Below are positions 33,676 to 47,851 of a stretch of DNA of 64,000 nt, piece by piece; positions within the stretch are counted from its first letter, which is position 1; each line of letters begins with the position of its first letter. The notes under the pieces were generated by a model. The model saw only the letters and a list, made by a program, of their open reading frames with translations, was not told the DNA's origin and did not search any database. This DNA comes from a virus (Duplodnaviria; Heunggongvirae; Uroviricota; Caudoviricetes). The position numbers and the translations under genes were made by a program. The DNA is taken from IMG/VR virus record IMGVR_UViG_3300024298_000005. The stretch is one strand, 5' to 3'.

Positions 33676-34283
33676 TTGAATACCAAGTAAGTTGAAAGAA
33701 TGTATTTGGTTTGTCCGTCTTGGGGCATAAGCCCTGCATGAGGAAAATGCCAAGTGGGTGTGAATATACAGAGCCGACCTCGACGAGCAGCCACGGTCAT
33801 GTTTTCCAAAGGAAACTCTGTGCCAGCGTCCGAATCGTTGAGATAAAACAAACAGGCCAAAAATCTAGATGAAGTTTCTAGGGTAGTATTATCAGCGTGT
33901 AGTTTAAACTCATGACGACCATTGGGTCTATAGCATTTGATTCTAAAACCCTCTAGGGCAAAGTCATAGGGCAAGATGTTTAGAGTGTCCCAATCACGCT
34001 TATAGTCACTGACCAAGGGTATGACCCTAGCTGAGAGTTGATCGCAGGTCTCAGTCCAATCATAGGCCCAGTGGCTGCTTTTCTTATAAAGATCCCAGGG
34101 ATTACGAGCCTGAGGGTGGCGTGTAGAGTGTAGATCTAATTCAATTAATTTGGCCCACTCGCCCGGACGTTCCTTATGGAATCGAGCGCAGAGTTCAAAG
34201 GCCTTGACCATTTCATCGCAGAATTCTGGGTCAAGGGCAGCGTCAATGACCCGTATGTAGTTTTTGTCGTAGACTATTTCCAT
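33672..34283 (-). CDS. 2OG-Fe(II) oxygenase (prolyl-4-hydroxylase / PhyH-like)
   Basis: HADN (HxD) ... HFPHAG second His; jelly-roll spacing. Confidence 0.6.
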   Translation of the reverse strand: MEIVYDKNYIRVIDAALDPEFCDEMVKAFELCARFHKERPGEWAKLIELDLHSTRHPQARNPWDLYKKSSHWAYDWTETCDQLSARVIPLVSDYKRDWDTLNILPYDFALEGFRIKCYRPNGRHEFKLHADNTTLETSSRFLACLFYLNDSDAGTEFPLENMTVAARRGRLCIFTPTWHFPHAGLMPQDGQTKYILSTYLVFK

Positions 34284-34303
34284 GCAGTATTTACTGCTGG
34301 GGC

Positions 34304-35146
34304 CTAGCTGCCAAATACGATTGTGAATGCTGTTTGTCTAAGGGCCAGGTTATCCACATAGGCCTTGGTAGTGGCCTGAAGGGGTTCTGTTACTGCTTCT
34401 GTTAGGCTAAGGGTACCCAGGGTAGTTATGTGTAGCCATTGGGGGTCTGTGTATTCTTGAGTTTCTAAAACAGCACCCTCTTGATAGGGCCCTGTTTCAA
34501 GCTCAAAGTTTAAGACATAGTCAGGGCCAGTGCCTTCAATGGTCACTGAGCTGCCCGAGCCCGAGGGTCTAGTTGTAACAGAGCCTATGCTGATCTCAGG
34601 TGCAGGGCCTGCGACATAGCCAGCTACCTGTTCACGCCCATCCGACCAGCGATATATGAGATTGCCCGTGGCTGTGTCTACTCTAAGACTTTCTATTTGC
34701 TGAGCTGCGGCCGAAGTTTGTACCACTTCTGTAGTGATCAGCTGTGCCCTAGGCGTTTGAGCAGTTTCATCGCTGACCAAGCCTGAGGTAGTCAAAGCCC
34801 AGGTTAGGCTAAGATTTTCAGCTGTGACAATGTTGTCTGTGGTTAATAGTTCAAGGGGAAACTGAGTGCCCAGAACTGATCTGCCCTTGCGAATGTTCTG
34901 TTGATAATGATCAAACCAAGCACGTGACCAATCAATTCTATTCTTATACTCTTCACGGTCTATGGTGATGCTGACAATGGTCTGTCCTAGCAGATCCGAG
35001 CTAGGCGGGTTAGCTGTGCGTATTTCCTTACTGGTAAATTTAAGCGCAACTTCTCGAATGGCTCTAGCATTGGCCCTAGTGGGTGTAACTCCTGAGCGTA
35101 TCAAGGAGTCTGTGAGCACACGATGTTGATTTTTGGTAAGAGCCAT
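34304..35146 (-). CDS. hypothetical protein
   Basis: 280-aa ORF. Confidence 0.5.
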   Translation of the reverse strand: MALTKNQHRVLTDSLIRSGVTPTRANARAIREVALKFTSKEIRTANPPSSDLLGQTIVSITIDREEYKNRIDWSRAWFDHYQQNIRKGRSVLGTQFPLELLTTDNIVTAENLSLTWALTTSGLVSDETAQTPRAQLITTEVVQTSAAAQQIESLRVDTATGNLIYRWSDGREQVAGYVAGPAPEISIGSVTTRPSGSGSSVTIEGTGPDYVLNFELETGPYQEGAVLETQEYTDPQWLHITTLGTLSLTEAVTEPLQATTKAYVDNLALRQTAFTIVFGS

Positions 35147-35158
35147 ACTAGTATTTAA

Positions 35159-35509
35159 TTAAACCCAGCTGCGACTATGACTTCTAGATAATTCTGGGTA
35201 TTTGATTTCAAAGAACACACGATTACGATCAGGCACAAAAAAGTCTATGTCGCCCCCAGGTTGTATACTGAGAAAGCCACCCCACGCTTGTACATCACGC
35301 CAAATCTGTTCAGGATCTAACCCATGTCGAAAGTGATGATATCTATAACAATGATCTGTGATCTGAATCGCCATCCTGTACTTATCCAAAATGGCCGAGC
35401 ATAATTCTATAAGCCGCGAAGCGGCAGCGGTAGCGCCATAAATATCAAATGAGGAAATTGCTGTTAATTTTAACTCTAGGCCTAGAGGCATGCTCACAGC
35501 TTTGCCCAC
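35159..35509 (-). CDS. hypothetical protein
   Basis: 116-aa ORF. Confidence 0.45.
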   Translation of the reverse strand: MGKAVSMPLGLELKLTAISSFDIYGATAAASRLIELCSAILDKYRMAIQITDHCYRYHHFRHGLDPEQIWRDVQAWGGFLSIQPGGDIDFFVPDRNRVFFEIKYPELSRSHSRSWV

Positions 35510-35561
35510 AGGGCCTTACAGAAGATCCACATAGAGTGTGTGTGCAGATAAGGATACAGGT

Positions 35562-35819
35562 ATGAAACAACAGGTTTGGTATCTGGTGCATAAAGACACC
35601 CAAAGACGCTTAAAGTACTACAGGTCTCTTGCGGGTGCTCGTATAGCACAAAGAGCACGTAATCATAGACTGGGCTTTATTGAGCGTGTAGAGCGTGTAG
35701 AGATATGGGATAACTGGGAAGTGGAAAGGTGCAAAAATAAAGCGGGTCTTATCTTAGAAGCAACTTGGTGTATAGTAGAAGACACCGTGGACATTGAGGA
35801 TTTATATGCAGAAGAATGA
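35562..35819 (+). CDS. hypothetical protein
   Basis: ORF track 35538, start moved to Met after AAGGA. Confidence 0.4.
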   Translation: MKQQVWYLVHKDTQRRLKYYRSLAGARIAQRARNHRLGFIERVERVEIWDNWEVERCKNKAGLILEATWCIVEDTVDIEDLYAEE

Positions 35820-35935
35820 TACGAAACTACAAGCATTACTAGCAAGTATAGTCTTAGTCTTGGTCTACTGGCTGTTTTGGATCATAACACATTAAATACT
35901 TGTATAACAACAAACAACTACGCAGGAGCGTGTAT

Positions 35936-36139
35936 ATGCGTAATCCAGAAGAAATTTCTAAATGGGTAAGAACAGAACTGGCTAGAGTAAATCCCTATAC
36001 AGATAAACTTAGAGCACATCTTTGGGCAGTGGGTTTTCTAAGTTCAATTATAGCTAGTCTAATATGGGCAGACTCTAAGAACTTGACGAGTTTTAGACTG
36101 GCTGTGGCTGCTAAACTCAAAGAACAAGATAGACTATGA
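35936..36139 (+). CDS. hypothetical protein with C-terminal TM helix
   Basis: AGGAGCG RBS 7 nt before ATG 35936. Confidence 0.4.
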   Translation: MRNPEEISKWVRTELARVNPYTDKLRAHLWAVGFLSSIIASLIWADSKNLTSFRLAVAAKLKEQDRL

Positions 36140-36370
36140 CCTATAATGGCCCCGCTGTAGAATCAACGTGTACATATATGTAGTATAGGCCTAAAGGCCG
36201 AGGGAACTATATATACATTCTTACTGAAGGATAAGAATCAAAGATTCTTACTGAGCTGTAGACGTTGATTTTACTGGGGTTTTGCAGCTGGGTCAGTAAG
36301 TAGCAAAAAGTGTGATTTACTGAGCCTAGACTCGCGTACAGGCCCCGCTGCGTAGGGTGTGCGCAAGGAA

Positions 36371-36410
36371 AAAGTGCAGAAAAGTGTGATAAAGTGTGAA
36401 ATTGTGTGGT
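36371..36410. repeat. four tandem 10-bp repeats AAAGTG(T/C)(G/A)(A/G)N
   Basis: aaagtgcaga aaagtgtgat aaagtgtgaa attgtgtggt read directly. Confidence 0.6.
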
Positions 36411-36514
36411 ATTTGAACTATGCCTCATAACCAATTCACCACGGTAGAGTCTACACTAAAAGATTCTAGCCTAGACTCTGCTCAAACGATTCAGAATCCA
36501 CCATTTCTCAGGGA

Positions 36515-36538
36515 GAATCCACCGTGAATCCACCGTGA
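36515..36538. repeat. tandem 12-mer GAATCCACCGTG x2 (third copy GAATCCACC at 36494)
   Basis: read directly; resembles DnaA-box-like TTATCCACA. Confidence 0.6.
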
Positions 36539-36598
36539 ACTAGTGCTCTTAAACCAGTCTACGGTAGGCGCAAAGTGGCCCCGCTGCTGTAGATTGTG

Positions 36599-36628
36599 GT
36601 TGACATACTCACGTAATGACTATATAAT
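36599..36628 (+). promoter_or_regulatory. sigma70 promoter TTGACA-N18-TATAAT
   Basis: -10 ends 7 nt before ATG 36636 (possibly leaderless). Confidence 0.5.
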
Positions 36629-36635
36629 ATCGCAT

Positions 36636-36890
36636 ATGACACAAAGAGAAGTATTTGAATATAACAATGAAGAAGAAGCCGAAATGGCTCAGATTCATAG
36701 TCTACACATTAATCAGAACGCTATAGATTCTGTACAAGCAGAGTTGGCTCGTCAAAGATCACAGCCTAGTCTAGAGGAATGTGAAGACTGCGGTGAAGCT
36801 ATTCCACAGGCTAGACAGCAAATGGTCCCAGGTTGTACACGCTGCGTATACTGCCAAGGCTTATTTGAGCGTCGTAGAGCTGGATACTAA
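36636..36890 (+). CDS. DksA/TraR-family C4 zinc-finger protein
   Basis: CEDCGEAIPQAR-x-CTRCVYC (CxxC-N17-CxxC) at C-terminus, size 85 aa. Confidence 0.6.
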   Translation: MTQREVFEYNNEEEAEMAQIHSLHINQNAIDSVQAELARQRSQPSLEECEDCGEAIPQARQQMVPGCTRCVYCQGLFERRRAGY

Positions 36891-36920
36891 TAGGCCCCGC
36901 TGCTATACACACGTACATGT

Positions 36921-37259
36921 ATGCAAAAGAAAAGACTATTATCTAAAAGCAGAGACTCTATGACCCTACCTGATGAACGTTATCGCGCTGTAGAGCAAAC
37001 ACAGCGTTTTCTAGAATCACTATTAGATTCTGCACAAACTCCCAGAGTACCCAAAAAGATCCGAGATTCAGCAAGAAGTCTGCTGCGCCACTATCCCTCA
37101 CGTTGGGATCTAGATCGTGCAGCAGCAGCTAGTCCTGATGTTTTTATACGTAGACTTGATCCCTTGTACAAGATGGTCAAGACTCATGACATGCAGCAGC
37201 GTATGGCCGAGGATGTGGAAGAAGATCTACGTGAAGCTAAGAATAGAGGTGAACTATGA
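36921..37259 (+). CDS. hypothetical protein
   Basis: 112-aa ORF, start uncertain (alternative ATG 36960). Confidence 0.4.
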   Translation: MQKKRLLSKSRDSMTLPDERYRAVEQTQRFLESLLDSAQTPRVPKKIRDSARSLLRHYPSRWDLDRAAAASPDVFIRRLDPLYKMVKTHDMQQRMAEDVEEDLREAKNRGEL

Positions 37260-37432
37260 CTAGGATAAAGATTGTTCAACCGGTGGAAGCGGACGGGGAA
37301 GTGGCTATGACTCCAGAAGAACTAGCACTAGCACAGGCTCGTCAACGTGCTGCGCTGGTGCCTAAATACGGGGAACCTGGCTGGAATCCTGATGCTCGCG
37401 ACCCCGACACTGACACCTTACCCAATCAATAA
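37256..37432 (+). CDS. small hypothetical protein (58 aa)
   Basis: ATGA overlap with previous stop; hand translated. Confidence 0.35.
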   Translation: MTRIKIVQPVEADGEVAMTPEELALAQARQRAALVPKYGEPGWNPDARDPDTDTLPNQ

Positions 37433-37438
37433 TTAATT

Positions 37439-37515
37439 CACGCATTAGCTCAGTTGGATAGAGCAACAGCCTTCTAAGCTGTGGGTCAGGGGTTCGAATC
37501 CCTTATGCGTGGCCA
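37439..37515 (+). tRNA. tRNA-Arg (anticodon UCU), CCA encoded
   Basis: cloverleaf folded by hand: acceptor CACGCAT/ATGCGTG, D GCTC/GAGC, anticodon loop CUUCUAA, T-loop TTCGAAT. Confidence 0.8.
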
Positions 37516-37519
37516 GTTA

Positions 37520-37597
<78 letters not shown>

Positions 37598-37604
37598 CTT
37601 GAGA

Positions 37605-37640
37605 AACCCTATAGTCAACTCAGCTATAGGGTTTTTTCTT
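37605..37640 (+). terminator. rho-independent terminator after tRNAs
   Basis: AACCCTATAG-loop-CTATAGGGTT followed by TTTTTTCTT. Confidence 0.7.
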
Positions 37641-37667
37641 GTCCAAACGGCTGTGATCGTGTACAAT
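37639..37667 (+). promoter_or_regulatory. sigma70-like promoter TTGTCC-N17-TACAAT
   Basis: weaker -35; precedes 42-aa ORF. Confidence 0.35.
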
Positions 37668-37689
37668 ATGCATTTAAACAAGGACAGCA

Positions 37690-37818
37690 ATGACAGCACT
37701 ACAGCAAAAGTTCTACGCTGCGTTAGCCTCGCTACAGCAGCACACAAATTTAGATGACGAAGAACAGCAAGACGCAATTGCTGCACTCGCGCAGCTAATC
37801 GAGGATCACGTCAAATAA
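37690..37818 (+). CDS. small hypothetical protein (42 aa)
   Basis: hand translated MTALQQKFYAALASLQQH...; followed by CCCTAG-GCCCT-CTAGGG hairpin. Confidence 0.3.
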   Translation: MTALQQKFYAALASLQQHTNLDDEEQQDAIAALAQLIEDHVK

Positions 37819-37852
37819 CCCTAGGCCCTCTAGGGTCTTAGACAAAATTGGT

Positions 37853-37880
37853 TGACATTTTGGCGCAGAGATCGTACAAT
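37853..37880 (+). promoter_or_regulatory. sigma70 promoter TTGACA-N16-TACAAT
   Basis: read directly. Confidence 0.5.
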
Positions 37881-37904
37881 ATACATATGTTGAAGGAGCG
37901 GCGA

Positions 37905-38225
37905 ATGCGAGCAAAGAGATCAGATCGTAATCACATCATCTATGAACTACGTGTTAACGGTGAGAACTACATTGGTGTCACAGCCAAGACTGAATCAACT
38001 ATTAATAAGAGTGTTCGCGCTCGTGCTGCCAAGCACTTCTATCGTGCCAAAACAGAAACTAAGAATTGGCTGCTTTGCTCAGCTCTACGCAAGCTCAACA
38101 GCAAAGAAGAAATTGAAATCATTGTTCACGAGATTGTTCGTGGCAAAGCCCTGGCCCATAAGCGCGAAGTAGAAATCCGCAGACTGGTAGGCCCTACACT
38201 AAACACAGACACACGAGGAGACTAA
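37905..38225 (+). CDS. GIY-YIG domain protein
   Basis: IIYELRVNGENYIGVT (GIY...YIG) motif; AAGGAGCG RBS before ATG 37905. Confidence 0.55.
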   Translation: MRAKRSDRNHIIYELRVNGENYIGVTAKTESTINKSVRARAAKHFYRAKTETKNWLLCSALRKLNSKEEIEIIVHEIVRGKALAHKREVEIRRLVGPTLNTDTRGD

Positions 38226-38226
38226 C

Positions 38227-38481
38227 ATGGACTTGACCGTAGAAATGTATCGTATAGATCGTCGCTGCAAAGCGGGCCGAGTACTAGTAATGAAGCAGGA
38301 CTACACAGACGTGAGCTGGGCCCAAATGGAGCGCATGTACCCACGTCGTCCACGCTACATCGTAGAGTTTCACGAGACTTGGGTTACAAAGACTAACCTT
38401 ATGACGGGCTTGCCCTATCAGGAACGTTACGATACCCCACATTGCTGTTCAGCAGCCAGCGAGACCTACTGGAGCATGTAG
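38227..38481 (+). CDS. hypothetical protein
   Basis: 84-aa ORF after GGAGA RBS. Confidence 0.45.
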   Translation: MDLTVEMYRIDRRCKAGRVLVMKQDYTDVSWAQMERMYPRRPRYIVEFHETWVTKTNLMTGLPYQERYDTPHCCSAASETYWSM

Positions 38482-38484
38482 GGG

Positions 38485-38513
38485 TTGACAACTAGGAATT
38501 TTGGCAGTATAAT
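38485..38513 (+). promoter_or_regulatory. sigma70 promoter GGTTGACAA-N17-TATAATAc
   Basis: consensus hexamers. Confidence 0.55.
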
Positions 38514-38541
38514 ACAGGCTTACAACGTTAAGGAGCGACCT

Positions 38542-38718
38542 ATGACTAACCCAATCCCTTCTAGCAACATTTGGCACACACCCGCAGATCTCAACGAGCT
38601 GCAGGATATGATCAATCAGTTCACAGGCCAGGAAGCTGCGCTGGCTGCACACGTGATGATGTTGACCCTGAACACCTGCCACAAATTAGTCGATGAAGCT
38701 ATCAAGGAGGCCGCATGA
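38542..38718 (+). CDS. hypothetical protein
   Basis: AAGGAGCGACCT ATG; ORF track start 38485 rejected in favour of RBS-supported ATG. Confidence 0.45.
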   Translation: MTNPIPSSNIWHTPADLNELQDMINQFTGQEAALAAHVMMLTLNTCHKLVDEAIKEAA

Positions 38719-39080
38719 GGTACTGGGACGAACTGCTGCGCGAGCAGCGTAATGGTCTAACCGTGATCGTGGACAAGACCTGGGAAGACTGCTCTATTCG
38801 CGATCTCTTTGATGAAAGCTGCTGTGATGTAGAGGACCTGGAACGTAAGGTTAACAGGGGCGATTTGGATTGGTTTATGCTCAGAGCTCGCGTCATGTAC
38901 AATGATCTGGAACTGGGCTCAGAGATCTGTGGAGGGTTCCTCTACGAAGATGCTCGCGATGTGCTGCGTGATGGTATGGCTGACGAGATGATCTGGCAAG
39001 CAGAGGAAGAAGCCAAACGACAATTACCCGGCCTTATTGAAGGGTTATTGCGTGTAGAGGTTGACAAATTGGCTGCGTGA
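38715..39080 (+). CDS. hypothetical acidic protein
   Basis: AAGGAGG RBS; ATGA overlap. Confidence 0.5.
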   Translation: MRYWDELLREQRNGLTVIVDKTWEDCSIRDLFDESCCDVEDLERKVNRGDLDWFMLRARVMYNDLELGSEICGGFLYEDARDVLRDGMADEMIWQAEEEAKRQLPGLIEGLLRVEVDKLAA

Positions 39081-39116
39081 GCATACAATAGAGACTTAGC
39101 AACAAAGGAGCGCGAT

Positions 39117-39455
39117 ATGCAGACACTTTTTAGCACAGCAGGCGACGGCTTGTGGAGCAACGTAGCAAAGCCTGTACACATTGTAGACATGCAACTTGCC
39201 TACATTAACGACGAGAGAGATTTTGGCGAGCTGCGTGTTTACTTTAACACTAAGTTTTGGGACGTTAACAAAGACGGTCTCATTTACACAGACAGCAACT
39301 TTATTGAAGAACTGCGCAATTTTTTAATTGCACAAGAACTAACTGACGACTGCGACTACAGCGAGCAAGGCATGCAGGGAGACAACTACGTTAGCTTAGA
39401 CGTGGGAGAGGGCTTTATTGCTGCGTGGGATGCAAAGTTTAACTTGTTTGCATAA
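39117..39455 (+). CDS. hypothetical protein
   Basis: AAAGGAGCG RBS. Confidence 0.5.
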   Translation: MQTLFSTAGDGLWSNVAKPVHIVDMQLAYINDERDFGELRVYFNTKFWDVNKDGLIYTDSNFIEELRNFLIAQELTDDCDYSEQGMQGDNYVSLDVGEGFIAAWDAKFNLFA

Positions 39456-39461
39456 GCACAA

Positions 39462-39498
39462 AACGGGGGTTGACAACAGCCCCCGTTTATAGTACAAT
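39462..39498 (+). promoter_or_regulatory. stem-loop (AACGGGGG/CCCCCGTT) enclosing -35 of promoter TTGACA(39470)-N17-TACAAT(39493)
   Basis: 8-bp inverted repeat flanks TTGACAACAG; read directly. Confidence 0.5.
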
Positions 39499-39527
39499 AG
39501 ACACACATTAACACAAAGGAGCGTGAA

Positions 39528-39950
39528 ATGGCTACTCGAAGCACTATTGCAATGGAGCAACCCGACGGTCGCGTAATGCAGATCTACTGCCACTGGGACG
39601 GTTACCTTGATCACAACGGAGAGATCCTTCAGGAGCACTATCGTGATCGCGCTAAGGTTTTGGCACTCATGTATCTGGGCGATATCAGCTCCTTAGCTCC
39701 TAGCATCGGAGAACCGCACGATTGGGACAACTGCCCTGAGGGTGTCTGCAACGCCTACGGACGCGATCGTGGCGAATCGGGCTGTGAAGCTCGTGTGTTC
39801 AAGGACTTTGAGGACTACAAGGCCAACCACCAGTACGAAGAATACGAGTATATCTTCCGTTCGGACGATCAGTGGTATGTTTCCGAATACAGCCGAGCCT
39901 ACCGCGCACTTGAGCAGGTGCTGGCAGAAGCAGAAACCCTAGAGGATTAA
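39528..39950 (+). CDS. hypothetical protein
   Basis: AAAGGAGCG RBS; 140 aa. Confidence 0.5.
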   Translation: MATRSTIAMEQPDGRVMQIYCHWDGYLDHNGEILQEHYRDRAKVLALMYLGDISSLAPSIGEPHDWDNCPEGVCNAYGRDRGESGCEARVFKDFEDYKANHQYEEYEYIFRSDDQWYVSEYSRAYRALEQVLAEAETLED

Positions 39951-39969
39951 GGGTTATTACTGAATGGGG

Positions 39970-39998
39970 TTGACAACAGCCTCATTTGGTAATATAAT
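39970..39998 (+). promoter_or_regulatory. sigma70 promoter GGTTGACAACAGCC-N-TATAAT (imperfect hairpin around -35)
   Basis: TTGACA 39970, TATAAT 39993, spacer 17. Confidence 0.55.
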
Positions 39999-40031
39999 AG
40001 AGGTATGTTCAACAAATGCATAGGAGCGAAA

Positions 40032-41105
40032 ATGCCAGCAGTAATTGAGATTCGTGAGGGTTCGTATAAGATCCGTGGCTCAGATGTGAGCATGGCCGGT
40101 AACCGTTTCGAACTAGTAGAGCAATACAAAGAAGGTGCTCAGGGTGGTTATGTAACCGTAGAAGGTGGCTCTGTACAGCCTGCTAACCCTGGCATTCCAG
40201 ATCGTAAGATCCGTATTCGTTGCAGTTCAGCACAAAGTTACATGATTGTCGCCGGTGAAGTGCCAGCAATGCCCGCAGGTGATAAAAGTTTGGAGCAGAT
40301 TAAAATTTCAGATAATGCCGTAGCACACGAAACGGACGAGCAGATCATCGAACGTCTTCGTAACCGTTTTGACGTGCTCAAAGATATGACCAAAGCAGTC
40401 AAAGAAGGTACCGTGCGAGCTATGATCGTCACAGGCCCTCCAGGCGTGGGCAAGAGCTTTGGTGTAGAAGAAGTACTAAGCAAGGACGATCTCTTTGATA
40501 TGATGGGTCAGCGCAAGCCCAAATATGAGATTGTCAAAGGCGCAATGTCAGCAGTGGGTCTGTACAGCAAGCTCTATCACTACAGCGAAAAAGGCAATGT
40601 TATCGTGTTTGATGACTGCGACTCTGTGCTGTTGGATGACCTTAGCCTTAATATTTTGAAGGCTGCTCTGGACTCTAGCAAGAAGCGTACTATCTCTTGG
40701 AACACTGACAGCCGTGTTCTGCGTTCAGAAGGAGTGCCAGATCGCTTTGAATTTAAAGCAGGCGCTATCTTTATCACTAACATCAAGTTTGAGAATGTGC
40801 GTTCTAAGAAACTGCAGGATCACCTTGCCGCTCTTGAAAGCCGTTGCCACTACATTGATCTTCAAATGGACACAGATCGCGAAAAGGTCTTGCGCATTAA
40901 GCAGATCACCCAAGATGGCATGTTGGACAGCTACGAGTTTGAAGACTGCGTTAAGGATGAGATCATTGATTACATTCTTGAAAAACGAGCACAAATGCGT
41001 GAGCTGAGCCTGCGTACGGTACTCAAGGTAGCAGACCTGCGCAAGAGCTTTCCTACAAATTGGAAGAGCATGGCAGAAGTTACCGTTATGAAGCGAGGTG
41101 CCTAA
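40032..41105 (+). CDS. AAA+ ATPase with unique N-terminal domain
   Basis: Walker A GPPGVGKS, Walker B VIVFDDCD; AGGAGCG RBS before ATG 40032. Confidence 0.65.
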   Translation: MPAVIEIREGSYKIRGSDVSMAGNRFELVEQYKEGAQGGYVTVEGGSVQPANPGIPDRKIRIRCSSAQSYMIVAGEVPAMPAGDKSLEQIKISDNAVAHETDEQIIERLRNRFDVLKDMTKAVKEGTVRAMIVTGPPGVGKSFGVEEVLSKDDLFDMMGQRKPKYEIVKGAMSAVGLYSKLYHYSEKGNVIVFDDCDSVLLDDLSLNILKAALDSSKKRTISWNTDSRVLRSEGVPDRFEFKAGAIFITNIKFENVRSKKLQDHLAALESRCHYIDLQMDTDREKVLRIKQITQDGMLDSYEFEDCVKDEIIDYILEKRAQMRELSLRTVLKVADLRKSFPTNWKSMAEVTVMKRGA

Positions 41106-41347
41106 TGGAAGGCCCGTCTAAGACCTGTACTTGGATTGGGCCCGAGCAGGACCCTTTGAAGCACTGGCCCATTCATTACTGCGGGTGTCCTAGTGTTCAA
41201 GGGTCTAGCTACTGCGCTGATCACTACTGGAAGGTCTATGCTCGAGGCACTTCAGTTAACGGCCGTCGACGTGAACGTGCCATAGAGCAAGAGATTCAAC
41301 AACTTAAACAAGCACAAGAGCTTGAGGAGTATGAAAATGAAAACTAA
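41105..41347 (+). CDS. GcrA C-terminal-domain-like zinc-binding protein (no N-terminal DNA-binding domain)
   Basis: TCTWxGP ... HYCGC ... YCADH matches GcrA CTD signature; TAATG coupling to AAA+ gene. Confidence 0.5.
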   Translation: MEGPSKTCTWIGPEQDPLKHWPIHYCGCPSVQGSSYCADHYWKVYARGTSVNGRRRERAIEQEIQQLKQAQELEEYENEN

Positions 41348-41537
41348 CATCTTTACAATTGCCCTGCTGGCGCTTGTAATCGTATTCTTTTTTGCCGTAG
41401 GTCCTATCCTGGTAATTTGGAGTATGAATACACTATTCCCCGTGTTGGCCATTCCGTATACGTTTTGGACATGGTTAAGCGTGGTCTTGCTCGGCGCATT
41501 CTTTCGAGCAAATGTTTCCATTAAACGGAAAGATTGA
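41337..41537 (+). CDS. small membrane protein
   Basis: GAGGAG RBS 7 nt before ATG 41337; two TM helices. Confidence 0.45.
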   Translation: MKTNIFTIALLALVIVFFFAVGPILVIWSMNTLFPVLAIPYTFWTWLSVVLLGAFFRANVSIKRKD

Positions 41538-41617
41538 GGTTGCTATTTTACAACAAGAATGCTACTATATTGACACGCTGTGGAACACAGCCATATAACA
41601 TAAAGGAAAACACAGAC

Positions 41618-41893
41618 ATGAAACGTATCTCTAAAGACTCAAAGACTTTTAAGATTTTTACTGCACTACAAAATGGTGACAAACTAACTGCAAGCCAAGC
41701 TGAGAAGCGTTTTGGCGTAAAGAACCTGGCTGCTGAAGCAAGCCGTCTCCGCCAAGCTGGTTATGCTGTTTATGCTAACTCTCGCAAGGCAGGTAATGGT
41801 GTTACCGTTACTGAGTATGAACTAGGCCGTCCTTCACGCGAGATCGTTGCTCTAGGCTACTTAGCTCGTAACATGGGCATGACATTGGCTTAA
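41618..41893 (+). CDS. hypothetical basic protein (possible DNA-binding)
   Basis: AAGGAAA RBS; 91 aa. Confidence 0.4.
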   Translation: MKRISKDSKTFKIFTALQNGDKLTASQAEKRFGVKNLAAEASRLRQAGYAVYANSRKAGNGVTVTEYELGRPSREIVALGYLARNMGMTLA

Positions 41894-41947
41894 TAGGTCG
41901 CTCCACAAAACCAAGCCGATTCGCTCCCGGGGCGGTTTTGGAATAGG

Positions 41948-41975
41948 GTCCTAAGGGCCCTATTTTTTTGGCCGT
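41948..41975 (+). terminator. rho-independent terminator
   Basis: ATAGGGTCC-TAA-GGGCCCTAT then TTTTTTT. Confidence 0.7.
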
Positions 41976-42015
41976 TTGTTGCAAAAAAGCCACAGGCCGG
42001 CACTCTCCAAAATGG

Positions 42016-42044
42016 TTGACAGAACTGCTGTTTGATGGTATAAT
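42016..42044 (+). promoter_or_regulatory. sigma70 promoter TTGACA-N17-TATAAT
   Basis: consensus. Confidence 0.55.
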
Positions 42045-42064
42045 AGAGTTATTGTTAAGGAGCG

Positions 42065-42712
42065 ATGATGAGCACATTTACAGCAGATCAAGTTTGGGGC
42101 CTAGCTGTTAGGGCTGATACACAGAATGGCGGCTACTGCAAAGAGCCTGTATTCGCTGCTACCGCTACACACGGGATCGATTACAATAACGTGATCAAAC
42201 AAGCCAACAAGGTTCTGGTCAAGAACTGGCTCAGAGAGAATGCTCAGCCTACAGCAGAAGAGATCACTCTTGGCCAAGAGTATCGTAACTATTTCAAAAC
42301 ATTCACCCTCAAAGCACTCACTGGCAAGATCAATGACTTTGAGACCACAGCTATGAAGATTGCAGCCAAAGACGAGTTCACTGGCCGTGATATGTTGGAC
42401 TTTGCTGTTGTCAGCTGTTTACCCAGCGTAGCTCGTCGTGATAAGGCCCAAACAGAGCTCAAGCGAGAGATCTATCAAAGCGAGCAACTCTCCGGCGCTG
42501 TAGGTGATGAGATCGTAGGGGAGATCGAAGTGATCCGCACACGATTCAACCCTGAATACAACAAGTATCGCATCACTGCTCGTATGGGTGAGAGCTTTAT
42601 TGATTTTTGGTACAAGGATGATGTCAAAGGCACTATCCGTATCAAGGGCAAGATCAAGAATGTTCGTGGCGATAAAACAACACAGCTCAACTATGTTAAA
42701 AAAGTTGGTTGA
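42065..42712 (+). CDS. hypothetical protein
   Basis: AAGGAGCG RBS; 215 aa. Confidence 0.5.
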   Translation: MMSTFTADQVWGLAVRADTQNGGYCKEPVFAATATHGIDYNNVIKQANKVLVKNWLRENAQPTAEEITLGQEYRNYFKTFTLKALTGKINDFETTAMKIAAKDEFTGRDMLDFAVVSCLPSVARRDKAQTELKREIYQSEQLSGAVGDEIVGEIEVIRTRFNPEYNKYRITARMGESFIDFWYKDDVKGTIRIKGKIKNVRGDKTTQLNYVKKVG

Positions 42713-42737
42713 CAACTGCACCAAGAGGTGCTACAAT
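42709..42737 (+). promoter_or_regulatory. sigma70 promoter TTGACA-N17-TACAAT
   Basis: overlaps 3' end of upstream ORF. Confidence 0.5.
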
Positions 42738-42789
42738 AATGATACTGGGAAAGTAATTGTTTTAACTCTTTTTATTAGCGAGGTCTAGA

Positions 42790-43875
42790 ATGGCAAAAGC
42801 ACAAGACGTTTCCGTCCGTCAAGTTGGCCCTAAGGGTGCCAAAAAAGCAATCCGTCACGCAATTAAAATGCGTCGTCCTGTATTCCTGTGGGGCCCTCCA
42901 GGTATTGGTAAGTCCGATCTCGTGAAGCAGATCGGTGATGATTCCAACCGTGAGGTTATTGATGTGCGCCTAGCACTTTGGGAACCCACCGACATCAAAG
43001 GTATTCCGTATTACAACGCAGACCAGGGCAAGATGGTTTGGGCTCCTCCCGCAGAACTGCCCATTGACCCAGAGTCCACTGCTATCATCTTCTTGGATGA
43101 ATTGAACTCTGCTCCTCCTGCTGTTCAGGCCGCGGCCTATCAGTTGGTGCTGAACCGTCGTGTTGGTACCTATGTTCTGCCTAAGGGTGTTGACGTAGTC
43201 GCCGCTGGTAACCGTGAAGGTGACCGTGGTGTTACCTATCGTATGCCTGCTCCGTTGGCTAACCGCTTCCTGCACTTGGAAATGAAGGTGGACTTTGATG
43301 ACTGGCAAGATTGGGCTACCCTTAACAAGGTGCATCCTGAGGTTGTAGGTTATGTGGGTTTTGCCAAGCAAGACTTGTATGACTTCGATCCTAAGAGCCC
43401 TAGCAAGTCATTTGCTACTCCTCGTTCTTGGAGTTTCGTCAGCGACCTGTTAGGTGATGACGGTGTTGACGAAGATACTTTGTCTACATTGGTAAGTGGT
43501 GCTATTGGTGACGGCTTGGCTGTTAAGTTTATGGCTCACCGTAAGATTGCTGGCAAATTGCCTAAGGCAGAAGACATCCTTATTGGCAAGGTCAAGGACC
43601 TTCAGATCAAGGAAGTGTCAGCGATGTATTCTTTGACCGTTTCATTGTGCTACGAGTTGAAAGACCGTGCAGAGAAAAAGGTTAAAGATTGGGATGCTCA
43701 GGCAGACAACTTCTTCCGCTACATGATGGACAATTTCCCAACTGAGATTGTGGTCATGGGTGCTAAGACTGCTCTTACCAACTACGACTTGCCGTTGGAC
43801 GCTACAAAGATGAAGAGCTTTGACGAGTTCCACAAGCGTTTTGGTAAGTATGTTTTGAAAGCGATGGAGAATTAA
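42790..43875 (+). CDS. MoxR-family AAA+ ATPase (AAA_5; CobS/GvpN/NorQ-like)
   Basis: Walker A GPPGIGKS, Walker B IIFLDELN, sensor region; 361 aa. Confidence 0.8.
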   Translation: MAKAQDVSVRQVGPKGAKKAIRHAIKMRRPVFLWGPPGIGKSDLVKQIGDDSNREVIDVRLALWEPTDIKGIPYYNADQGKMVWAPPAELPIDPESTAIIFLDELNSAPPAVQAAAYQLVLNRRVGTYVLPKGVDVVAAGNREGDRGVTYRMPAPLANRFLHLEMKVDFDDWQDWATLNKVHPEVVGYVGFAKQDLYDFDPKSPSKSFATPRSWSFVSDLLGDDGVDEDTLSTLVSGAIGDGLAVKFMAHRKIAGKLPKAEDILIGKVKDLQIKEVSAMYSLTVSLCYELKDRAEKKVKDWDAQADNFFRYMMDNFPTEIVVMGAKTALTNYDLPLDATKMKSFDEFHKRFGKYVLKAMEN

Positions 43876-43935
43876 GACCTCGCCCATCGCCGGGCGGGGG
43901 CTCACCCAGGGCTTCCGCCCACCTTTTGGAGTGCC

Positions 43936-43980
43936 GGGCGGTGTTGTAAATACGCAACATCGTCCGGTTTCTTTTTGGTT
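43936..43980 (+). terminator. rho-independent terminator (13-bp stem with G-U pairs)
   Basis: CCGGGCGGTGTTG-TAAATACG-CAACATCGTCCGG then TTTCTTTTT. Confidence 0.7.
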
Positions 43981-44008
43981 GACAAACCCGGATCCTGGTG
44001 CTATAATA
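43979..44008 (+). promoter_or_regulatory. sigma70 promoter TTGACA-N18-TATAAT
   Basis: consensus hexamers. Confidence 0.5.
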
Positions 44009-44032
44009 TACACATACTAAGGAGAGCGACTA

Positions 44033-45241
44033 ATGTCTACAAACATCGTTGATAAATTAACTACTGCACGGGTCGGTCTATTGCTCAAAGCACCGTTCTT
44101 TGGCAACATGGCAACTCGTATGCGTTTAGTCTGTGCTGACGACTGGTGCCCTACTGCGGCGACCAATGGCCGTGACTTTTATTACAACACAAAGTTCATC
44201 GAAAAACTTTCAGAGAAAAAACTAGAGTTCCTGTTTGGTCACGAGATCCTTCACTGCGTGTTTGATCACTTTGGCCGTGTAGGTAGCCGTGATCGTCAAC
44301 TTTCTAACATCGCACAGGACTTTGCTGTAAACCAAATCCTTGTAGACGAGCGTATTGGTGAGAAGATCACTGAGGTTAAGATCTGTTATGATCCTAAGTT
44401 CCGTGGACTTGCTTGGGAAGAAATCTACGATATTCTGTATGAAAAAGCAGAGAAGATTCCTATGGATCAACTGATGAAAGAGTTGGGCGATCTGTTGGAC
44501 GAGCACATTAAGGAACAAGAGGGTGCTGGCTCAGAAGATGACAAGACCAAAGACGGTAAGAGCAAGCCTAGCCTTAGCAAAGAAGAAGCAGAACGCATCA
44601 AGCAAGAGATCAAAGAAGCAATGATCCAAAGTGCCGCGGCCGCTGGTGCAGGCAAGACTCCTGCAGGCATTATGCGTATGATTAAGTCTATGACTGAGCC
44701 TAAGATGGACTGGCGTCAGTTGGTGCAACAAGAGATCCAAAGCATTGTTCGCAACGACTACTCCTTCCAGCGTGTTAATCGCAAGAGTATGCACTCAGGC
44801 GCAATCTTGCCAGGCATGAAAGAAGCAACTACCATTGACGTGGCTATTGCTGTTGACATGAGTGGTAGTATTGGTGAAGAAGATGCCAGCACATTCCTTT
44901 CGGAGATCAAAGGCATCATGGACCAATACGAGGACTTCAAGATCAACCTGTGGTGCTTTGACACAGAGATCTATAACCCACAAGAGATCACTCATGACAA
45001 CTCACATGACTTGCTTGAGTATGAACCTCAAGGTGGCGGTGGCACAGACTTTGATGTCAACTTTACCTACATGGAAGAGAATGACATTCGCCCTAAGAAG
45101 TTCATTATGTTCACAGACGGCTATCCCTGTGGTAGTTGGGGTCCTGAGGACTACTGCGACACAATCTTTATCGTTAAGGGCAATACACAAGCAGAGGCGC
45201 CCTTTGGTCAAACGGTGATCTACGAAAAAGAGGCGGGCTAG
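44033..45241 (+). CDS. VWA-domain protein with N-terminal HExxH metallopeptidase-like domain (DUF2201/CobT-like partner of MoxR ATPase)
   Basis: FGHEILHCVFDH (HExxH); MIDAS DMSGSIG; TAAGGAGAGCG RBS. Confidence 0.7.
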   Translation: MSTNIVDKLTTARVGLLLKAPFFGNMATRMRLVCADDWCPTAATNGRDFYYNTKFIEKLSEKKLEFLFGHEILHCVFDHFGRVGSRDRQLSNIAQDFAVNQILVDERIGEKITEVKICYDPKFRGLAWEEIYDILYEKAEKIPMDQLMKELGDLLDEHIKEQEGAGSEDDKTKDGKSKPSLSKEEAERIKQEIKEAMIQSAAAAGAGKTPAGIMRMIKSMTEPKMDWRQLVQQEIQSIVRNDYSFQRVNRKSMHSGAILPGMKEATTIDVAIAVDMSGSIGEEDASTFLSEIKGIMDQYEDFKINLWCFDTEIYNPQEITHDNSHDLLEYEPQGGGGTDFDVNFTYMEENDIRPKKFIMFTDGYPCGSWGPEDYCDTIFIVKGNTQAEAPFGQTVIYEKEAG

Positions 45242-45324
45242 GAGAGTGCCGGGGGGTGTGGCTAAAAAGCCACACTTCCACCAAAGGCCCCGCTGCTACA
45301 CGTATGCACGTATATAGATTATGG

Positions 45325-45353
45325 TTGACAGATAGATAATTTGGCCTTATAAT
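45325..45353 (+). promoter_or_regulatory. sigma70 promoter TTGACA-N17-TATAAT
   Basis: consensus. Confidence 0.55.
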
Positions 45354-45384
45354 ACATATACACAGACACAGAAAGGGGCGGTAA

Positions 45385-45528
45385 ATGGAACTAGTAATTG
45401 CATTTGTCCTTGGGCTCATAGTAATGGACTTAATGTGGGCCTGGCGCTTGGGCATCCCTCAGATGCTTTGGGCACGTTGGAAGTATCGCAAAGTCCTTAA
45501 ACAAATGTCAGAACAGGAGCAATCATGA
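45385..45528 (+). CDS. small membrane peptide (47 aa)
   Basis: hand translated MELVIAFVLGLIVMDLMWAW...; ATGA coupled to next. Confidence 0.3.
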   Translation: MELVIAFVLGLIVMDLMWAWRLGIPQMLWARWKYRKVLKQMSEQEQS

Positions 45529-45653
45529 AAGTATTCATCGCAGGTACAATCTTTGGTCTCGTAGTGGCTACCGTAGGATTATCGGGCATCGCTAAGATCT
45601 TCGATAATGGGGTTGCCAAAGTCCAGGAAGTATCTAAAGAAGCTGCGAAGTAA
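45525..45653 (+). CDS. small membrane peptide (42 aa)
   Basis: AGGAGCAATC ATG; MKVFIAGTIFGLVVATVGL... Confidence 0.3.
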   Translation: MKVFIAGTIFGLVVATVGLSGIAKIFDNGVAKVQEVSKEAAK

Positions 45654-45862
45654 TGCCTAGATACACGTTCTGGCGCAATTCTATAATCTGCGAAGTCTAC
45701 GAACTTGAAGCAGGTTCAGAAGAGGAAGCACGTGAAAAGCTCATGAATGGAGAAGTGGACCCAATGACCGAAGAATGGGTTGATTGGGCCACTGACAACT
45801 TCGAGCTGGAAGACGTGGAAGATGAATTGGTAACATTCTTAAAATCAAAGGAAACAACATGA
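45653..45862 (+). CDS. hypothetical acidic protein
   Basis: 69-aa ORF, TAATG coupling. Confidence 0.4.
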   Translation: MPRYTFWRNSIICEVYELEAGSEEEAREKLMNGEVDPMTEEWVDWATDNFELEDVEDELVTFLKSKETT

Positions 45863-46050
45863 CTTTTGGTATGATCGTTGAAGATCCCTTTTATGATGAA
45901 GATGGTGTACTCATTGACGAGGATGCTGATTGGGAAGATGTTGCAGACCCGGGCGACCTAGTCTACAACGAAGACATCGGCGAATGGTTGGACAAAGAGC
46001 TAGCTGCTCACGATCGCACCTACAGCCCATTCGATACAATCAACAGCTAA
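45859..46050 (+). CDS. hypothetical acidic protein
   Basis: 63-aa ORF. Confidence 0.4.
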   Translation: MTFGMIVEDPFYDEDGVLIDEDADWEDVADPGDLVYNEDIGEWLDKELAAHDRTYSPFDTINS

Positions 46051-46065
46051 CGTACATCATTTTGG

Positions 46066-46094
46066 TTGACAACTTGGCTTTTTGGTGTTAAACT
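46066..46094 (+). promoter_or_regulatory. sigma70 promoter TTGACA-N17-TAAACT
   Basis: consensus -35, weaker -10. Confidence 0.45.
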
Positions 46095-46119
46095 ATAGGC
46101 ATAGTGAAAGGAGCCAGCT

Positions 46120-46323
46120 GTGAATCAAAATGAATTTGAATACCTGAAGCGAGCCGTTGATGCATTGGGATCGTCAGAGACAACTCCGATGGCCCGTGTC
46201 AAGATCTTAAGGACGATGGAGCAGATCGCCGGACGCTGTGCCGTGGTGATCGAGAGGGAGTTCCAAGACCGCGTAGATCAGAACTTGGCCAATGCACATT
46301 TGGTTGACCTTTTGAGAAAATGA
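46120..46323 (+). CDS. hypothetical protein (GTG start)
   Basis: GAAAGGAGCC RBS then GTG. Confidence 0.35.
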   Translation: MNQNEFEYLKRAVDALGSSETTPMARVKILRTMEQIAGRCAVVIEREFQDRVDQNLANAHLVDLLRK

Positions 46324-46357
46324 TTGTATAATTTTAACACTAACTTAAGGAGCGAAT

Positions 46358-46984
46358 ATGCCTAATTGGTGCAACAACAACTTGACGCTGGAGCATGATG
46401 ATCCAGCAATGATTACCCGTGCTAAAGAAGCACTTGATCGTGGAGAGTTCCTGCAGGAGTTTATTCCTGTGCCCAAAGAACTCACAGAGACCATGGCAGG
46501 ATCCTACGGGGATGATGCCAAACAAAAGGATCTGGAAGCACAGATGAAAGCCAATGTGGCCAAATATGGCTACAGCAACTGGTATGACTTCTGCGTGGGT
46601 GAATGGGGAACCAAATGGGATGTAGGCGGTGATGGACAAAGCGACATCCACCCAGACGGTAAGAGTCTATTCACTTCTTTTGATTCAGCATGGTCACCAC
46701 CCGTGAATGCTTATCAGAAGTTGGAACAACTTGGCTTCCGTGTGAACGCAATGTTCTACGAATCCGGTATGGCATTTGCTGGTATTTACGAAGATGGCAA
46801 CTGCGAGGACTTTAGCCTAGAAGGCATGAGTGCCGATGAGATCGAGCAGAACTATCCAGAGTTGGACGAAGCATTCTGCATCGCCGAGGCTATCCGTGAA
46901 TTCCAGGAAGAGGACGAAGAGCTCACAGAGTGGATCAAGGATGGTGTTGAGCAGAACAAGAAACTAGGACTTGTTTCAGAATGA
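46358..46984 (+). CDS. hypothetical protein
   Basis: AAGGAGCG RBS; 208 aa. Confidence 0.5.
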   Translation: MPNWCNNNLTLEHDDPAMITRAKEALDRGEFLQEFIPVPKELTETMAGSYGDDAKQKDLEAQMKANVAKYGYSNWYDFCVGEWGTKWDVGGDGQSDIHPDGKSLFTSFDSAWSPPVNAYQKLEQLGFRVNAMFYESGMAFAGIYEDGNCEDFSLEGMSADEIEQNYPELDEAFCIAEAIREFQEEDEELTEWIKDGVEQNKKLGLVSE

Positions 46985-47280
46985 TGCACATTGTTAAACT
47001 CGACAAGAGATACGATGGTTATGGAAGATTTAGCCATCGTGTCGAGTTTATCAGTTATGGCGCAGGTGCGAGGCTTACAGATCAAAAGAATTGGATTAAG
47101 TCTCGCAACTACTTGTGGACGCAATTCGGTCCGAGTGCCGAATTGCACCTAGCTCGCCCAGAGTTATTCGATGGGGTCCAACCAAAATGGGCCTGGGATG
47201 ATTCTAAGAGTGCTATATATTTGAAAGACGAATCTTACACAATGTTCGTTTTGAAATGGGAGTCATGGCAAAATGCCTAG
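46981..47280 (+). CDS. hypothetical protein
   Basis: ATGA coupling. Confidence 0.45.
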   Translation: MMHIVKLDKRYDGYGRFSHRVEFISYGAGARLTDQKNWIKSRNYLWTQFGPSAELHLARPELFDGVQPKWAWDDSKSAIYLKDESYTMFVLKWESWQNA

Positions 47281-47467
47281 AGAGTTTAACTTCAGTTTTC
47301 ACGTGGTCTGCGCCGGGGACGGCAAGGCAGACGTGGGCCGAGTCGAAGAAATGATCGATTTGGCCATGCAGGATCTGGTCTACGACGACGAGTTCATCGC
47401 CGCCTTGGACGAGAAGGACAGCGTTACTATTCAAGTAATTCCGCAATTTGGACAAACAAATGGTTGA
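47273..47467 (+). CDS. hypothetical protein
   Basis: 64-aa ORF. Confidence 0.4.
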   Translation: MPREFNFSFHVVCAGDGKADVGRVEEMIDLAMQDLVYDDEFIAALDEKDSVTIQVIPQFGQTNG

Positions 47468-47492
47468 CAAACTTGAATAGTGATGCTACATT
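47464..47492 (+). promoter_or_regulatory. sigma70-like promoter TTGACA-N17-TACATT (weak -10)
   Basis: read directly. Confidence 0.35.
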
Positions 47493-47549
47493 ATTAACAT
47501 GCCCAATAGGCATATCTTTAACACACACACTTTTTGGAGAACTTTAAAA

Positions 47550-47851
47550 TGGCTACAGATAAGAAATTTGCGGTTGCTGGTGTTTCGACACTGGAAGGTA
47601 AGACCAAGCTTCGTTTCGCTAACGATGTTATGCGCATCAAGATCTTGGCAAAGAACGGTCACAAGGATGTTGAGCTCGTTGAGCTGCCATCAGAGATGAC
47701 CAAGGCTGAGGCTGTACAACACCTCAAGAGCGTTGGTTTCGGCTCAGGCAATGCTGCTGTACAAGCTGCGATCGCCTACGCTGAGAAGAAGAATCCAGCC
47801 CCTAAAGCTGTTAAGACTACTGCCGCGAAGGCAGAGGCTGTTACCGCTTAA
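47550..47851 (+). CDS. hypothetical protein
   Basis: GGAGAACTTTAAA ATG; ORF track 47534. Confidence 0.45.

Follow-up and report, generated by a model that had tools for sequence, protein, structure and literature searches.

The motif and its setting in the window

The stretch of DNA analysed here (64,000 nt of a tailed phage genome, IMG/VR record IMGVR_UViG_3300024298_000005, referred to as the window) contains a short, repeated, intergenic motif, the 10-mer GGCCCCGCTG, which is the subject of this study. Five exact copies of the 10-mer are present in the window, at positions 36148, 36341, 36577, 36893, and 45286, as had been listed in a preliminary description of this DNA. All five are on the + strand, while 0.03 copies would be expected by chance, and none of 100 shuffles of the window matched this count. 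No additional copies with one mismatch occur in the whole 64 kb. The identical five sites were seen in seven independent assemblies of the same phage. The motif is real and highly non-random. A literature search with the 10-mer as a query returned unrelated primers only.

No close DNA relative of the window was found among sequenced phages. The replication proteins and MoxR/VWA proteins encoded by the window are about 44-53% identical to their counterparts in the Pseudomonas jumbo phage PA5oct, and related metagenomic contigs reach 275-364 kb. The window belongs to the genome of a large PA5oct-related phage. PA5oct, the nearest relative in culture, has no RNA polymerase of its own, depends on the host polymerase and is sensitive to rifampicin; its early genes are located in a 39-kb terminal repeat, and it produces abundant non-coding RNAs (ncRNAs) described as "lacking known promoters" (PMC7318152).

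The five copies of the motif are all inside a region of the window that we designate the early block (36.6-51 kb), which comprises small genes of the + strand and at least 16 sigma-70 promoters that are near-perfect and have an extended -35 element (tGGTTGACAa-N17-TATAAT); these promoters span positions 36600-51031, and every one of them is on the + strand. The G+C content of the early block is 0.45-0.49 over 36.6-51 kb, versus 0.34-0.40 in the remainder of the window, and 0.42-0.49 versus 0.34-0.40 when compared within 33000-52000 with the flanking regions of structural and replication genes. None of the non-early genes of the window is accompanied by the motif. Four of the copies are grouped within 750 bp at the left edge of the early block, where it adjoins the leftward gene block; a 497-bp non-coding gap contains, or is bordered by, three of these four. 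In the case of several early promoters, the ATG codon is only about 7 nt past the -10 hexamer (e.g., TATAAT at 36623-36628 and ATG at 36636), which suggests that the respective mRNAs are leaderless.

Copy 1 of the motif (36148-36158, + strand), which represents the GGCCCCGCTGT variant, is 8 nt past the stop codon of a gene encoding a 67-aa protein (35936-36139) and is followed by a 17-nt tract of alternating purines and pyrimidines, ACGTGTACATATATGTA (36166-36182). Copy 2 (36341-36351, + strand) is in non-coding DNA, at the start of a conserved iteron-like unit. In several relatives its place is taken by a degenerate GTAGAGGCCGCTGCG, which indicates that individual copies turn over. The iteron-like, non-coding unit between copies 2 and 3 (36372-36534) belongs to the context of the motif and is not a part of it. 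Copy 3 (36577-36587, + strand) precedes a perfect sigma-70 promoter (TTGACA-17-TATAAT, 12/12 matches, 36600-36628, + strand), the 10-mer core ending 13 nt ahead of the -35 hexamer; the promoter is predicted to drive a DksA/TraR-like gene (36636-36890). Copy 4 (36893-36903, + strand) starts 2 nt past the stop codon of the DksA-like gene and 56 nt ahead of the ATG codon (36960) of a BPSL0761-family gene, and is directly followed by a 22-nt alternating purine-pyrimidine tract (36904-36925). In those relatives that lack the DksA cassette, a sigma-70 promoter is present directly behind the equivalent of copy 4.

Copy 5 (45286-45296, + strand) is 44 nt past the stop codon of the gene encoding a 402-aa protein of the DUF2201/VWA type (44033-45241). 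Between this gene and the motif there is a hairpin without a T-run, GGTGTGGC-TAAAAA-GCCACAC(T) (45255-45276, + strand), which is kept just upstream of copy 5 in relatives. The motif is followed here by a 20-nt alternating purine-pyrimidine tract (45297-45316) and by a second 12/12 sigma-70 promoter (45325-45353, + strand) 29 nt past the 10-mer core; this promoter is predicted to drive a gene (45385-45528) whose 47-aa hydrophobic product is probably a membrane protein. The site of copy 5 is the most widely syntenic one, and in some relatives it is occupied by GACCCCGCTGC.

Conservation of the motif in related phages

The primary set of sequences for comparison consisted of 80 loci fetched around relatives of the 402-aa gene, and additional family loci were obtained from a scan of the sequence collection with a 14-base pattern, among the matches listed, which also included chance hits in G+C-rich contigs. 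The sets of sites referred to below differ in the extent of de-duplication: 138 sites (less strict), 176 or 166 non-redundant sites, and a non-redundant set of 115 that have no sigma-70 promoter.

Of the 80 loci, 49 contain the 10-mer, in every case on the gene strand. In 1.33 Mb of family loci, the 11-mer GGCCCCGCTGC occurs 150 times on the + strand and not once on the - strand, and 287 copies of the motif were counted in 88 family loci (1.2 Mb). Recurrent variants of the 11-mer are limited to three single transitions (...GCTGT, GACCCC..., and ...CCGTTGC), the second of which is confined to the site behind the 402-aa gene. The consensus derived from a position matrix of 176 non-redundant sites is y-A-t-A-GGCCCCGCTGC-t. 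Conservation extends only from -4 to +11, with no information elsewhere between -20 and +39, and an earlier matrix covering -60 to +89 was equally flat outside the motif. The word is 11-16 bases long, with a core in which 10 of 11 positions are G or C; the yAtA 5' of the core and the t 3' of it are semi-conserved, and the flanks are unrelated between sites.

Syntenic places of the motif in relatives are an array about 8 kb upstream of the 402-aa gene, a single copy just past this gene, and often another copy about 5 kb further. The motif is absent from PA5oct and from those clades whose version of the neighbouring protein has an identity of no more than 57%; in the clades without the motif, ordinary hairpins occupy the syntenic place. 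No analogous motif was found in PA5oct or in the sister clades.

A linear, invariant, asymmetric, and strand-specific word that is embedded in unrelated flanks and is not associated with any structure (see below) implies sequence-specific recognition, most simply by a protein. From its sequence and distribution, the motif is probably a protein-recognition site that punctuates early transcription units of these uncultured giant phages.

Position of the motif relative to genes and promoters

The placement of the motif is intergenic: an open frame of the + strand crosses 11% of motif sites versus 59% of random positions. About 19% of the sites outside called open reading frames (ORFs) are 0-5 nt past the stop codon of a + strand ORF, and the rest are widely spread (176 non-redundant sites). 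With this proportion alone within 5 nt of a stop, a general coupling of the motif to stop codons was rejected. In the preliminary description, each copy had been placed within about 12 nt of an upstream stop; this is right for copies 1 and 4, which follow real genes, but not for copy 5, nor for copies 2 and 3, which are in non-coding DNA where stop codons are trivial.

Strong sigma-70 promoters of the 88 family loci are also oriented, with 1149 of them on the strand of the motif and 46 on the opposite strand. At 70 of the 138 de-duplicated sites, the motif is followed by a strong promoter whose -35 hexamer starts 1-50 nt downstream, most often at 7-9 nt, and a -35 hexamer is found within 60 nt downstream at 50 of the 166 non-redundant sites (~30%). 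TTGACA is the most enriched word downstream of the motif. Conversely, a promoter within 100 nt upstream was identified at a single site of the 138. The motif never overlaps promoter hexamers, the smallest spacing being 1 nt, and does not itself contain sigma-70 -35 and -10 hexamers at 16-18 bp spacing; complete promoters lie downstream. The next feature after the 166 non-redundant sites is another copy of the motif in 73 cases, a promoter in 57, and a Shine-Dalgarno sequence with a start codon in 26. Canonical terminators consisting of a hairpin and a T-run were found within about 100 nt of 10 of the 176 sites, and the motif is itself part of none of them. Since terminators are rare beside the motif, it appears to occupy the place of a terminator.

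The three longest alternating purine-pyrimidine runs of the whole window (17, 22, and 20 nt) are those that directly follow copies 1, 4, and 5. Among non-redundant sites, a run of at least 12 nt is present within 50 nt downstream of the motif in 33% of cases, as compared to 5% on the upstream side and 2-10% for control windows. The asymmetric tract is therefore a real feature, although it is lacking at copies 36341 and 36577 and its distance from the motif is variable. This tract corresponds to what had initially been noticed as a CTATACA or CTACACG continuation leading to a TATATA or TATGCA element; the continuation exists, but it does not follow at a fixed distance or at every copy.

The same early observation had led to an analogy with T4 middle promoters, in which the motif would be a MotA-box-like -30 element (TGCT) acting with a sigma-70 -10 hexamer through sigma appropriation. 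The 3' half of the motif, GCTGCT(a/t), does resemble the TGCTT of the MotA box, and the phage has other T4-like traits, namely near-consensus early promoters and the (c/a)TAAATA sequence before many non-early genes. However, there is no -10 hexamer at 11-13 nt or at any other fixed offset from the motif. The matrix is flat past +11, and among the 115 promoter-less non-redundant sites TAnnnT stays at background (0.00-0.06 vs. ~0.025) at each offset from +8 to +44. The invariant G+C-rich 5' half of the motif has no counterpart in MotA boxes, half of the sites (in the set of 138) precede a full sigma-70 promoter that has a -35 hexamer of its own, and no MotA_activ, MotCF, AsiA, sigma-factor, or RNA polymerase domains were detected by Pfam searches in about 40 ORFs of the early region. 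A MotA-type middle promoter is refuted at the sequence level, and we consider it highly improbable.

A phage-specific promoter or start signal of another kind, read by the host polymerase together with some phage factor or by a phage polymerase that has escaped discovery, is unlikely. Each copy is upstream of something and points with the genes, and the units of the arrays, as well as several genes behind single copies, have no sigma-70 promoter. The array at the left edge of the early block would then consist of promoters in tandem, as in T7 or N4 at their left ends; early blocks that begin with such tandem arrays are a classical arrangement (T7 A1-A3). The flexible purine-pyrimidine tract just downstream could be a melting region, and the ncRNAs of PA5oct that lack known promoters (PMC7318152) may be of relevance here too. 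On the other hand, neither a -10-like sequence nor any other second element accompanies the motif at a fixed distance, and positions -20 to -5, where the recognition region of a single-subunit RNA polymerase promoter would be expected, carry no information. A core of such high G+C content does not fit a start signal, and neither does the lack of the motif in all the non-early genes of the window. No polymerase, sigma factor, MotA, or AsiA was found in the ORFs scanned, and PA5oct does not encode a phage polymerase. An intrinsic terminator is present 13-40 nt past a perfect motif in three relatives (L053 11235, L174 13666, and L030 8211), and in another one (L052 12595) a Shine-Dalgarno sequence and an ATG codon follow within 13 nt.

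Tests for RNA structure

In single-sequence partition folding of 140 sites, the pairing probability of the motif was the same as that of its flanks. The duplex energy of the motif with its flanks was close to that of controls, GGGG was found nearby at 13-14% of sites only, and there was no excess of hairpins ending just upstream of the motif. A scan of positions 35000-47000 against Rfam 15 at E below 1 detected two tRNAs only. A consistent RNA structure at the motif is ruled out by these four results. There are exceptions at a few conserved sites (behind the 402-aa gene and where the iteron-like unit ends), at which either a GGGG...CCCC stem has the C-run of the motif as its 3' arm or the motif is abutted by a small hairpin, but this is not general.

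These results bear on the possibility that the motif acts in RNA as a linear site for an endoribonuclease, for a factor of stability or translation, or for an elongation or antitermination factor (ops- or boxA-like) on early read-through transcripts, which we regard as rather improbable. It would explain why the motif is always on the transcribed sense strand and why it is often directly past stop codons or 7-58 nt ahead of start codons. Its invariance across diverged phages would fit a conserved host factor, and the tolerated changes of C to T at positions 8 and 11 of the core would retain G-U pairing with a complementary RNA. At one site (L150 12286), a sigma-70 promoter would start transcription at the motif. 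Against this, a conserved structure and an Rfam family are both lacking, nothing complementary to the motif is present in 1.3 Mb, and the likeness to boxA or ops is too low for membership. The motif is almost never in the 5' untranslated region of an adjacent promoter, and copies in arrays have no visible upstream promoter. The copy at L063 16863 is behind a strong terminator and ahead of the next promoter, so that the motif would be rarely transcribed there. The fallback proposal of the preliminary description, a factor-binding or RNA-processing site, is left standing by the evidence, with recognition by a protein as the simplest explanation.

Anatomy of the arrays and the iteron-like unit

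At the start of the early block, relatives contain arrays of three to eight copies of the motif, which bracket the iteron-like non-coding unit and variable small cassettes. The order of units between copies is conserved: the iteron-like unit comes first, then one or more variable small units, and then the BPSL0761-family gene. In the window, the interval between copies 3 and 4 is occupied by the promoter and the DksA-like cassette. Shuffling of the unit order between copies was ruled out, as the order is kept and the content alone varies.

The non-coding unit (36290-36534) includes the inverted repeat CAGTAA...TTACTG (36290-36326). It contains 4-5 (A/T)AAGTGTGA repeats with a period of about 11 nt (36372-36410), three AGAATCCACC repeats in the opposite sense (36493-36534), and a conserved CCATTTGAGCATAGCCTC-like block between these two groups of repeats. 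The unit is conserved in 18 relatives, and its repeats resemble DnaA boxes. Its role might be that of an origin or of an array for protein loading.

Homology between relatives, as measured by the ends of high-scoring segment pairs, breaks with a peak at the edges of the motif and even more often at -35 hexamers. As the breaks are stronger at the latter, they are not specific to the motif, and the mosaic pieces are bounded by conserved regulatory islands in general. A genome terminus at the array was also considered and rejected: contigs end or start there at random positions, which gives no indication of a terminus and fits assembly breaks in a hypervariable region.

In a more divergent member of the family (L106, the end of a 176-kb contig with a G+C content of 0.38), seven copies of the motif are present within 5 kb. 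Several of them are preceded by AAGTGCC, the same word that is found elsewhere ahead of the hairpin upstream of the copy behind the 402-aa gene. The palindromes TATATAC(A/T)GTATA or TATACGTATA recur in the arrays of relatives just ahead of the ribosome binding sites of tiny genes (L002 2300-2330, L006 3330-3350, L021 3850-3880, and the arrays of L041 and L063). These palindromes are distinct from the motif and have the appearance of operators for a dimeric regulator.

The anatomy of the arrays makes it conceivable that the motif is a DNA site with no role in transcription, such as a site of binding or nicking in replication initiation, an integron-like core for site-specific recombination at which small cassettes would be captured, a nick site of the T5 or phiKMV type, or a packaging signal near the boundary of a terminal repeat. 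The copies bracket a unit with DnaA-box-like repeats beside genes for an AAA+ ATPase and a winged-helix protein, variable cassettes are delimited by the arrays, and there is turnover of individual copies. Recombination within the core would be expected to leave an exact core whose flanks are unrelated on either side, the flexible purine-pyrimidine tract would fit, and every transcription-based model has contradicting sites. The location of PA5oct early genes in the 39-kb terminal repeat would also be in line with this possibility. Nevertheless, we find it doubtful. The loci showed no gene for a recombinase, nickase, or HUH protein, the breakpoints of homology are stronger at -35 hexamers, the random contig ends do not indicate a terminus, and the conserved single copies located 9 and 14 kb inside the early block are misfits for an origin or a pac site. 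The strict tie of the motif to the direction of transcription is not accounted for either.

Other features of the window

The early block contains a pair of genes for tRNA-Arg(TCT) and tRNA-Met(CAT) at 37439-37597, followed by a hairpin terminator (~37607-37640). A gene for an AAA+ ATPase (AAA_16-like, PHROG 1250, 40005-41105) is conserved in all motif-bearing loci. The early block also encodes a winged-helix protein (PF14090, 41618-41893, + strand), which 56 of 58 motif-bearing loci share and which we treat as a candidate binder of the motif only. The two proteins could be an initiator or regulator pair.

Many non-early genes have the sequence (c/a)TAAATA 10-25 nt ahead of their ribosome binding sites (e.g., 296-688, 4245-5519, 16323-16556, and 62496-63326), which is reminiscent of late promoters of T4 or cyanophages. 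The full T4 late promoter TATAAATA is not enriched in the window. The auxiliary metabolic genes of the window encode isocitrate lyase, a class I/II aminotransferase, two nucleotide-sugar epimerases, and several 2OG-Fe(II) oxygenases; they are found at 4245-5519 (- strand), 16599-17801 (+ strand), 17785-22256 (- strand), and at 22868-23458 and 29325-29948 (+ strand). An ORF of 1384 aa beside the virion genes (9962-14116, - strand) had no sequence match in Pfam, PHROG, or PDB, and no useful match came from sequence searches against the database of solved structures in which this protein, the AAA+ ATPase, and the winged-helix protein were the queries.

A putative protein-bound boundary element

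We tentatively propose, with a probability of roughly 0.3, that the motif is an asymmetric protein-binding boundary element, functionally similar to stoperators or to the terminator half of PeSL cassettes. One sequence-specific protein, most likely encoded by the phage but possibly by the host, would read yAtA-GGCCCCGCTGC-t. The site would punctuate the early block transcribed by the host RNA polymerase, past one unit and ahead of the next unit or its sigma-70 promoter, always in the orientation of transcription. Once bound, the site would be a polar boundary at which read-through from upstream is stopped or attenuated, and it may also modulate the promoter next to it. Such a boundary would insulate the small early cassettes and the iteron-like unit, and would permit a timed shut-off of early units. 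The site could thus be a protein-dependent counterpart of the stem-loop half of PeSL cassettes of T4-type phages, working in a similar way as the stoperators of mycobacteriophages.

Several observations weigh against a boundary element. No binding protein could be singled out, and the gene for the winged-helix protein accompanies the motif no more faithfully than the genes around it. Arrays of 3-8 copies are found in DNA without a recognisable upstream promoter or visible incoming transcription to be stopped. At some sites (L063 15922, L002 2479, and L052 12595), the motif is 7-13 nt ahead of a start codon with no promoter between them, so that any stop would have to be conditional, and at L063 16863 a strong terminator 4 nt ahead of the motif would make a roadblock redundant. 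A small minority of early promoters carry the motif (287 copies vs. 1149 promoters). The known stoperators are those of temperate phages and number 20-30 per genome, whereas here there are about 5-8 sites per 20-64 kb, in the early block only. Finally, the boundary model does not account for the purine-pyrimidine tract downstream of the motif.

It is a long shot that the motif belongs to a hitherto undescribed system of PA5oct-related jumbo phages. This could be a hairpin-independent, factor-dependent polar boundary of transcription by which a lytic phage times the expression of its early cassettes or, more boldly, the site-specific recombination core of an integron-like array capturing and exchanging promoter-bearing ORFan cassettes, in which case the purine-pyrimidine tract could be the strand-opening region.

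Phages of the PA5oct lineage rely on the host RNA polymerase, and the way in which their very large sets of early genes are ordered is almost unstudied. An invariant, oriented, clade-wide word offers a tractable handle on this problem, as a bait for its binder and as a marker of unit boundaries, and allows a test of PeSL-like shuffling or stoperator-like control of elongation outside T4-like phages and mycobacteriophages. If the motif is regulatory punctuation only, it will still be a useful annotation feature for an abundant group of freshwater phages. If it turns out to be a recombination core or a hairpin-independent terminator, its interest will become high.

Comparison with known systems

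Certain known elements resemble the motif in part. Like the T4 MotA middle promoters, it is short, oriented, with a TGCT-like core, and located upstream of early or middle genes transcribed by the host polymerase, but it lacks a spaced -10 hexamer, MotA and AsiA were not found, and its invariant G+C-rich half has no counterpart in those promoters. It shares with the promoters of single-subunit RNA polymerases of the T7, SP6, and Syn5 type a near-invariant, oriented, intergenic sequence of about 16-23 nt present in a handful of copies, and its yATA-GG junction recalls the TATA-GGG of T7. The differences concern the absence of a conserved upstream region (-17 to -5), the fact that such a polymerase was not seen in the window and is not present in PA5oct, and the presence of terminators or start codons too close behind some motif sites. 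The strand-specific nick sites of T5 and phiKMV-like phages are few, one-stranded, conserved, and 10-20 nt long. The motif is similar in all these respects, but it is linked to intergenic gaps and promoters, a link not known for nick sites; nicks themselves are invisible in sequence.

The stoperators of phages of the L5 type are asymmetric sites of 13 bp that occupy short intergenic spaces, point in the direction of transcription, and are recognised by a protein monomer (PMC9283540). The motif is comparable to the stoperators of Cluster A mycobacteriophages, recognised by L5 gp71, in being short (13-16 bp), asymmetric, present in many copies, and well conserved. Both kinds of sites are found in short intergenic spaces in strict orientation with transcription, in phages transcribed by the host polymerase. 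They differ in that no homologue of the two-domain repressor, which blocks elongation in an orientation-dependent manner at stoperators, was found here, only a generic winged-helix protein, and in that the phage of the window looks like a lytic jumbo myovirus. The motif sites are also far fewer, restricted to the early block and clustered at its start, and they never overlap promoter hexamers; their binding by a protein and a polar blocking of transcription are hypothetical.

PeSL cassettes of the T4-type phages RB49/phi1, T4/PST, and KVP40/nt-1 consist of a terminator and a near-perfect sigma-70 promoter, and are associated with flanking ORFans (PMC2839356, PMC4122927). The differences between them and the motif are that the latter is an invariant linear 11-mer that does not form a stem-loop, that hairpins are not enriched at its sites overall, and that it accompanies a minority of promoters, with many copies in promoter-less arrays; a terminator role is putative in its case. 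In a subset of copies the motif is the C-run arm of a GGGG...CCCC stem, which is also seen in PeSLs. In both cases, composite intergenic elements of a hyperplastic early region include a G/C-rich element, which at a part of the motif sites is directly upstream of TTGACA-N17-TATAAT, and are repeated between small ORFan cassettes that differ among close relatives, with homology breaking at the elements. The motif is probably best filed among the known kinds of intergenic punctuation elements of phages.

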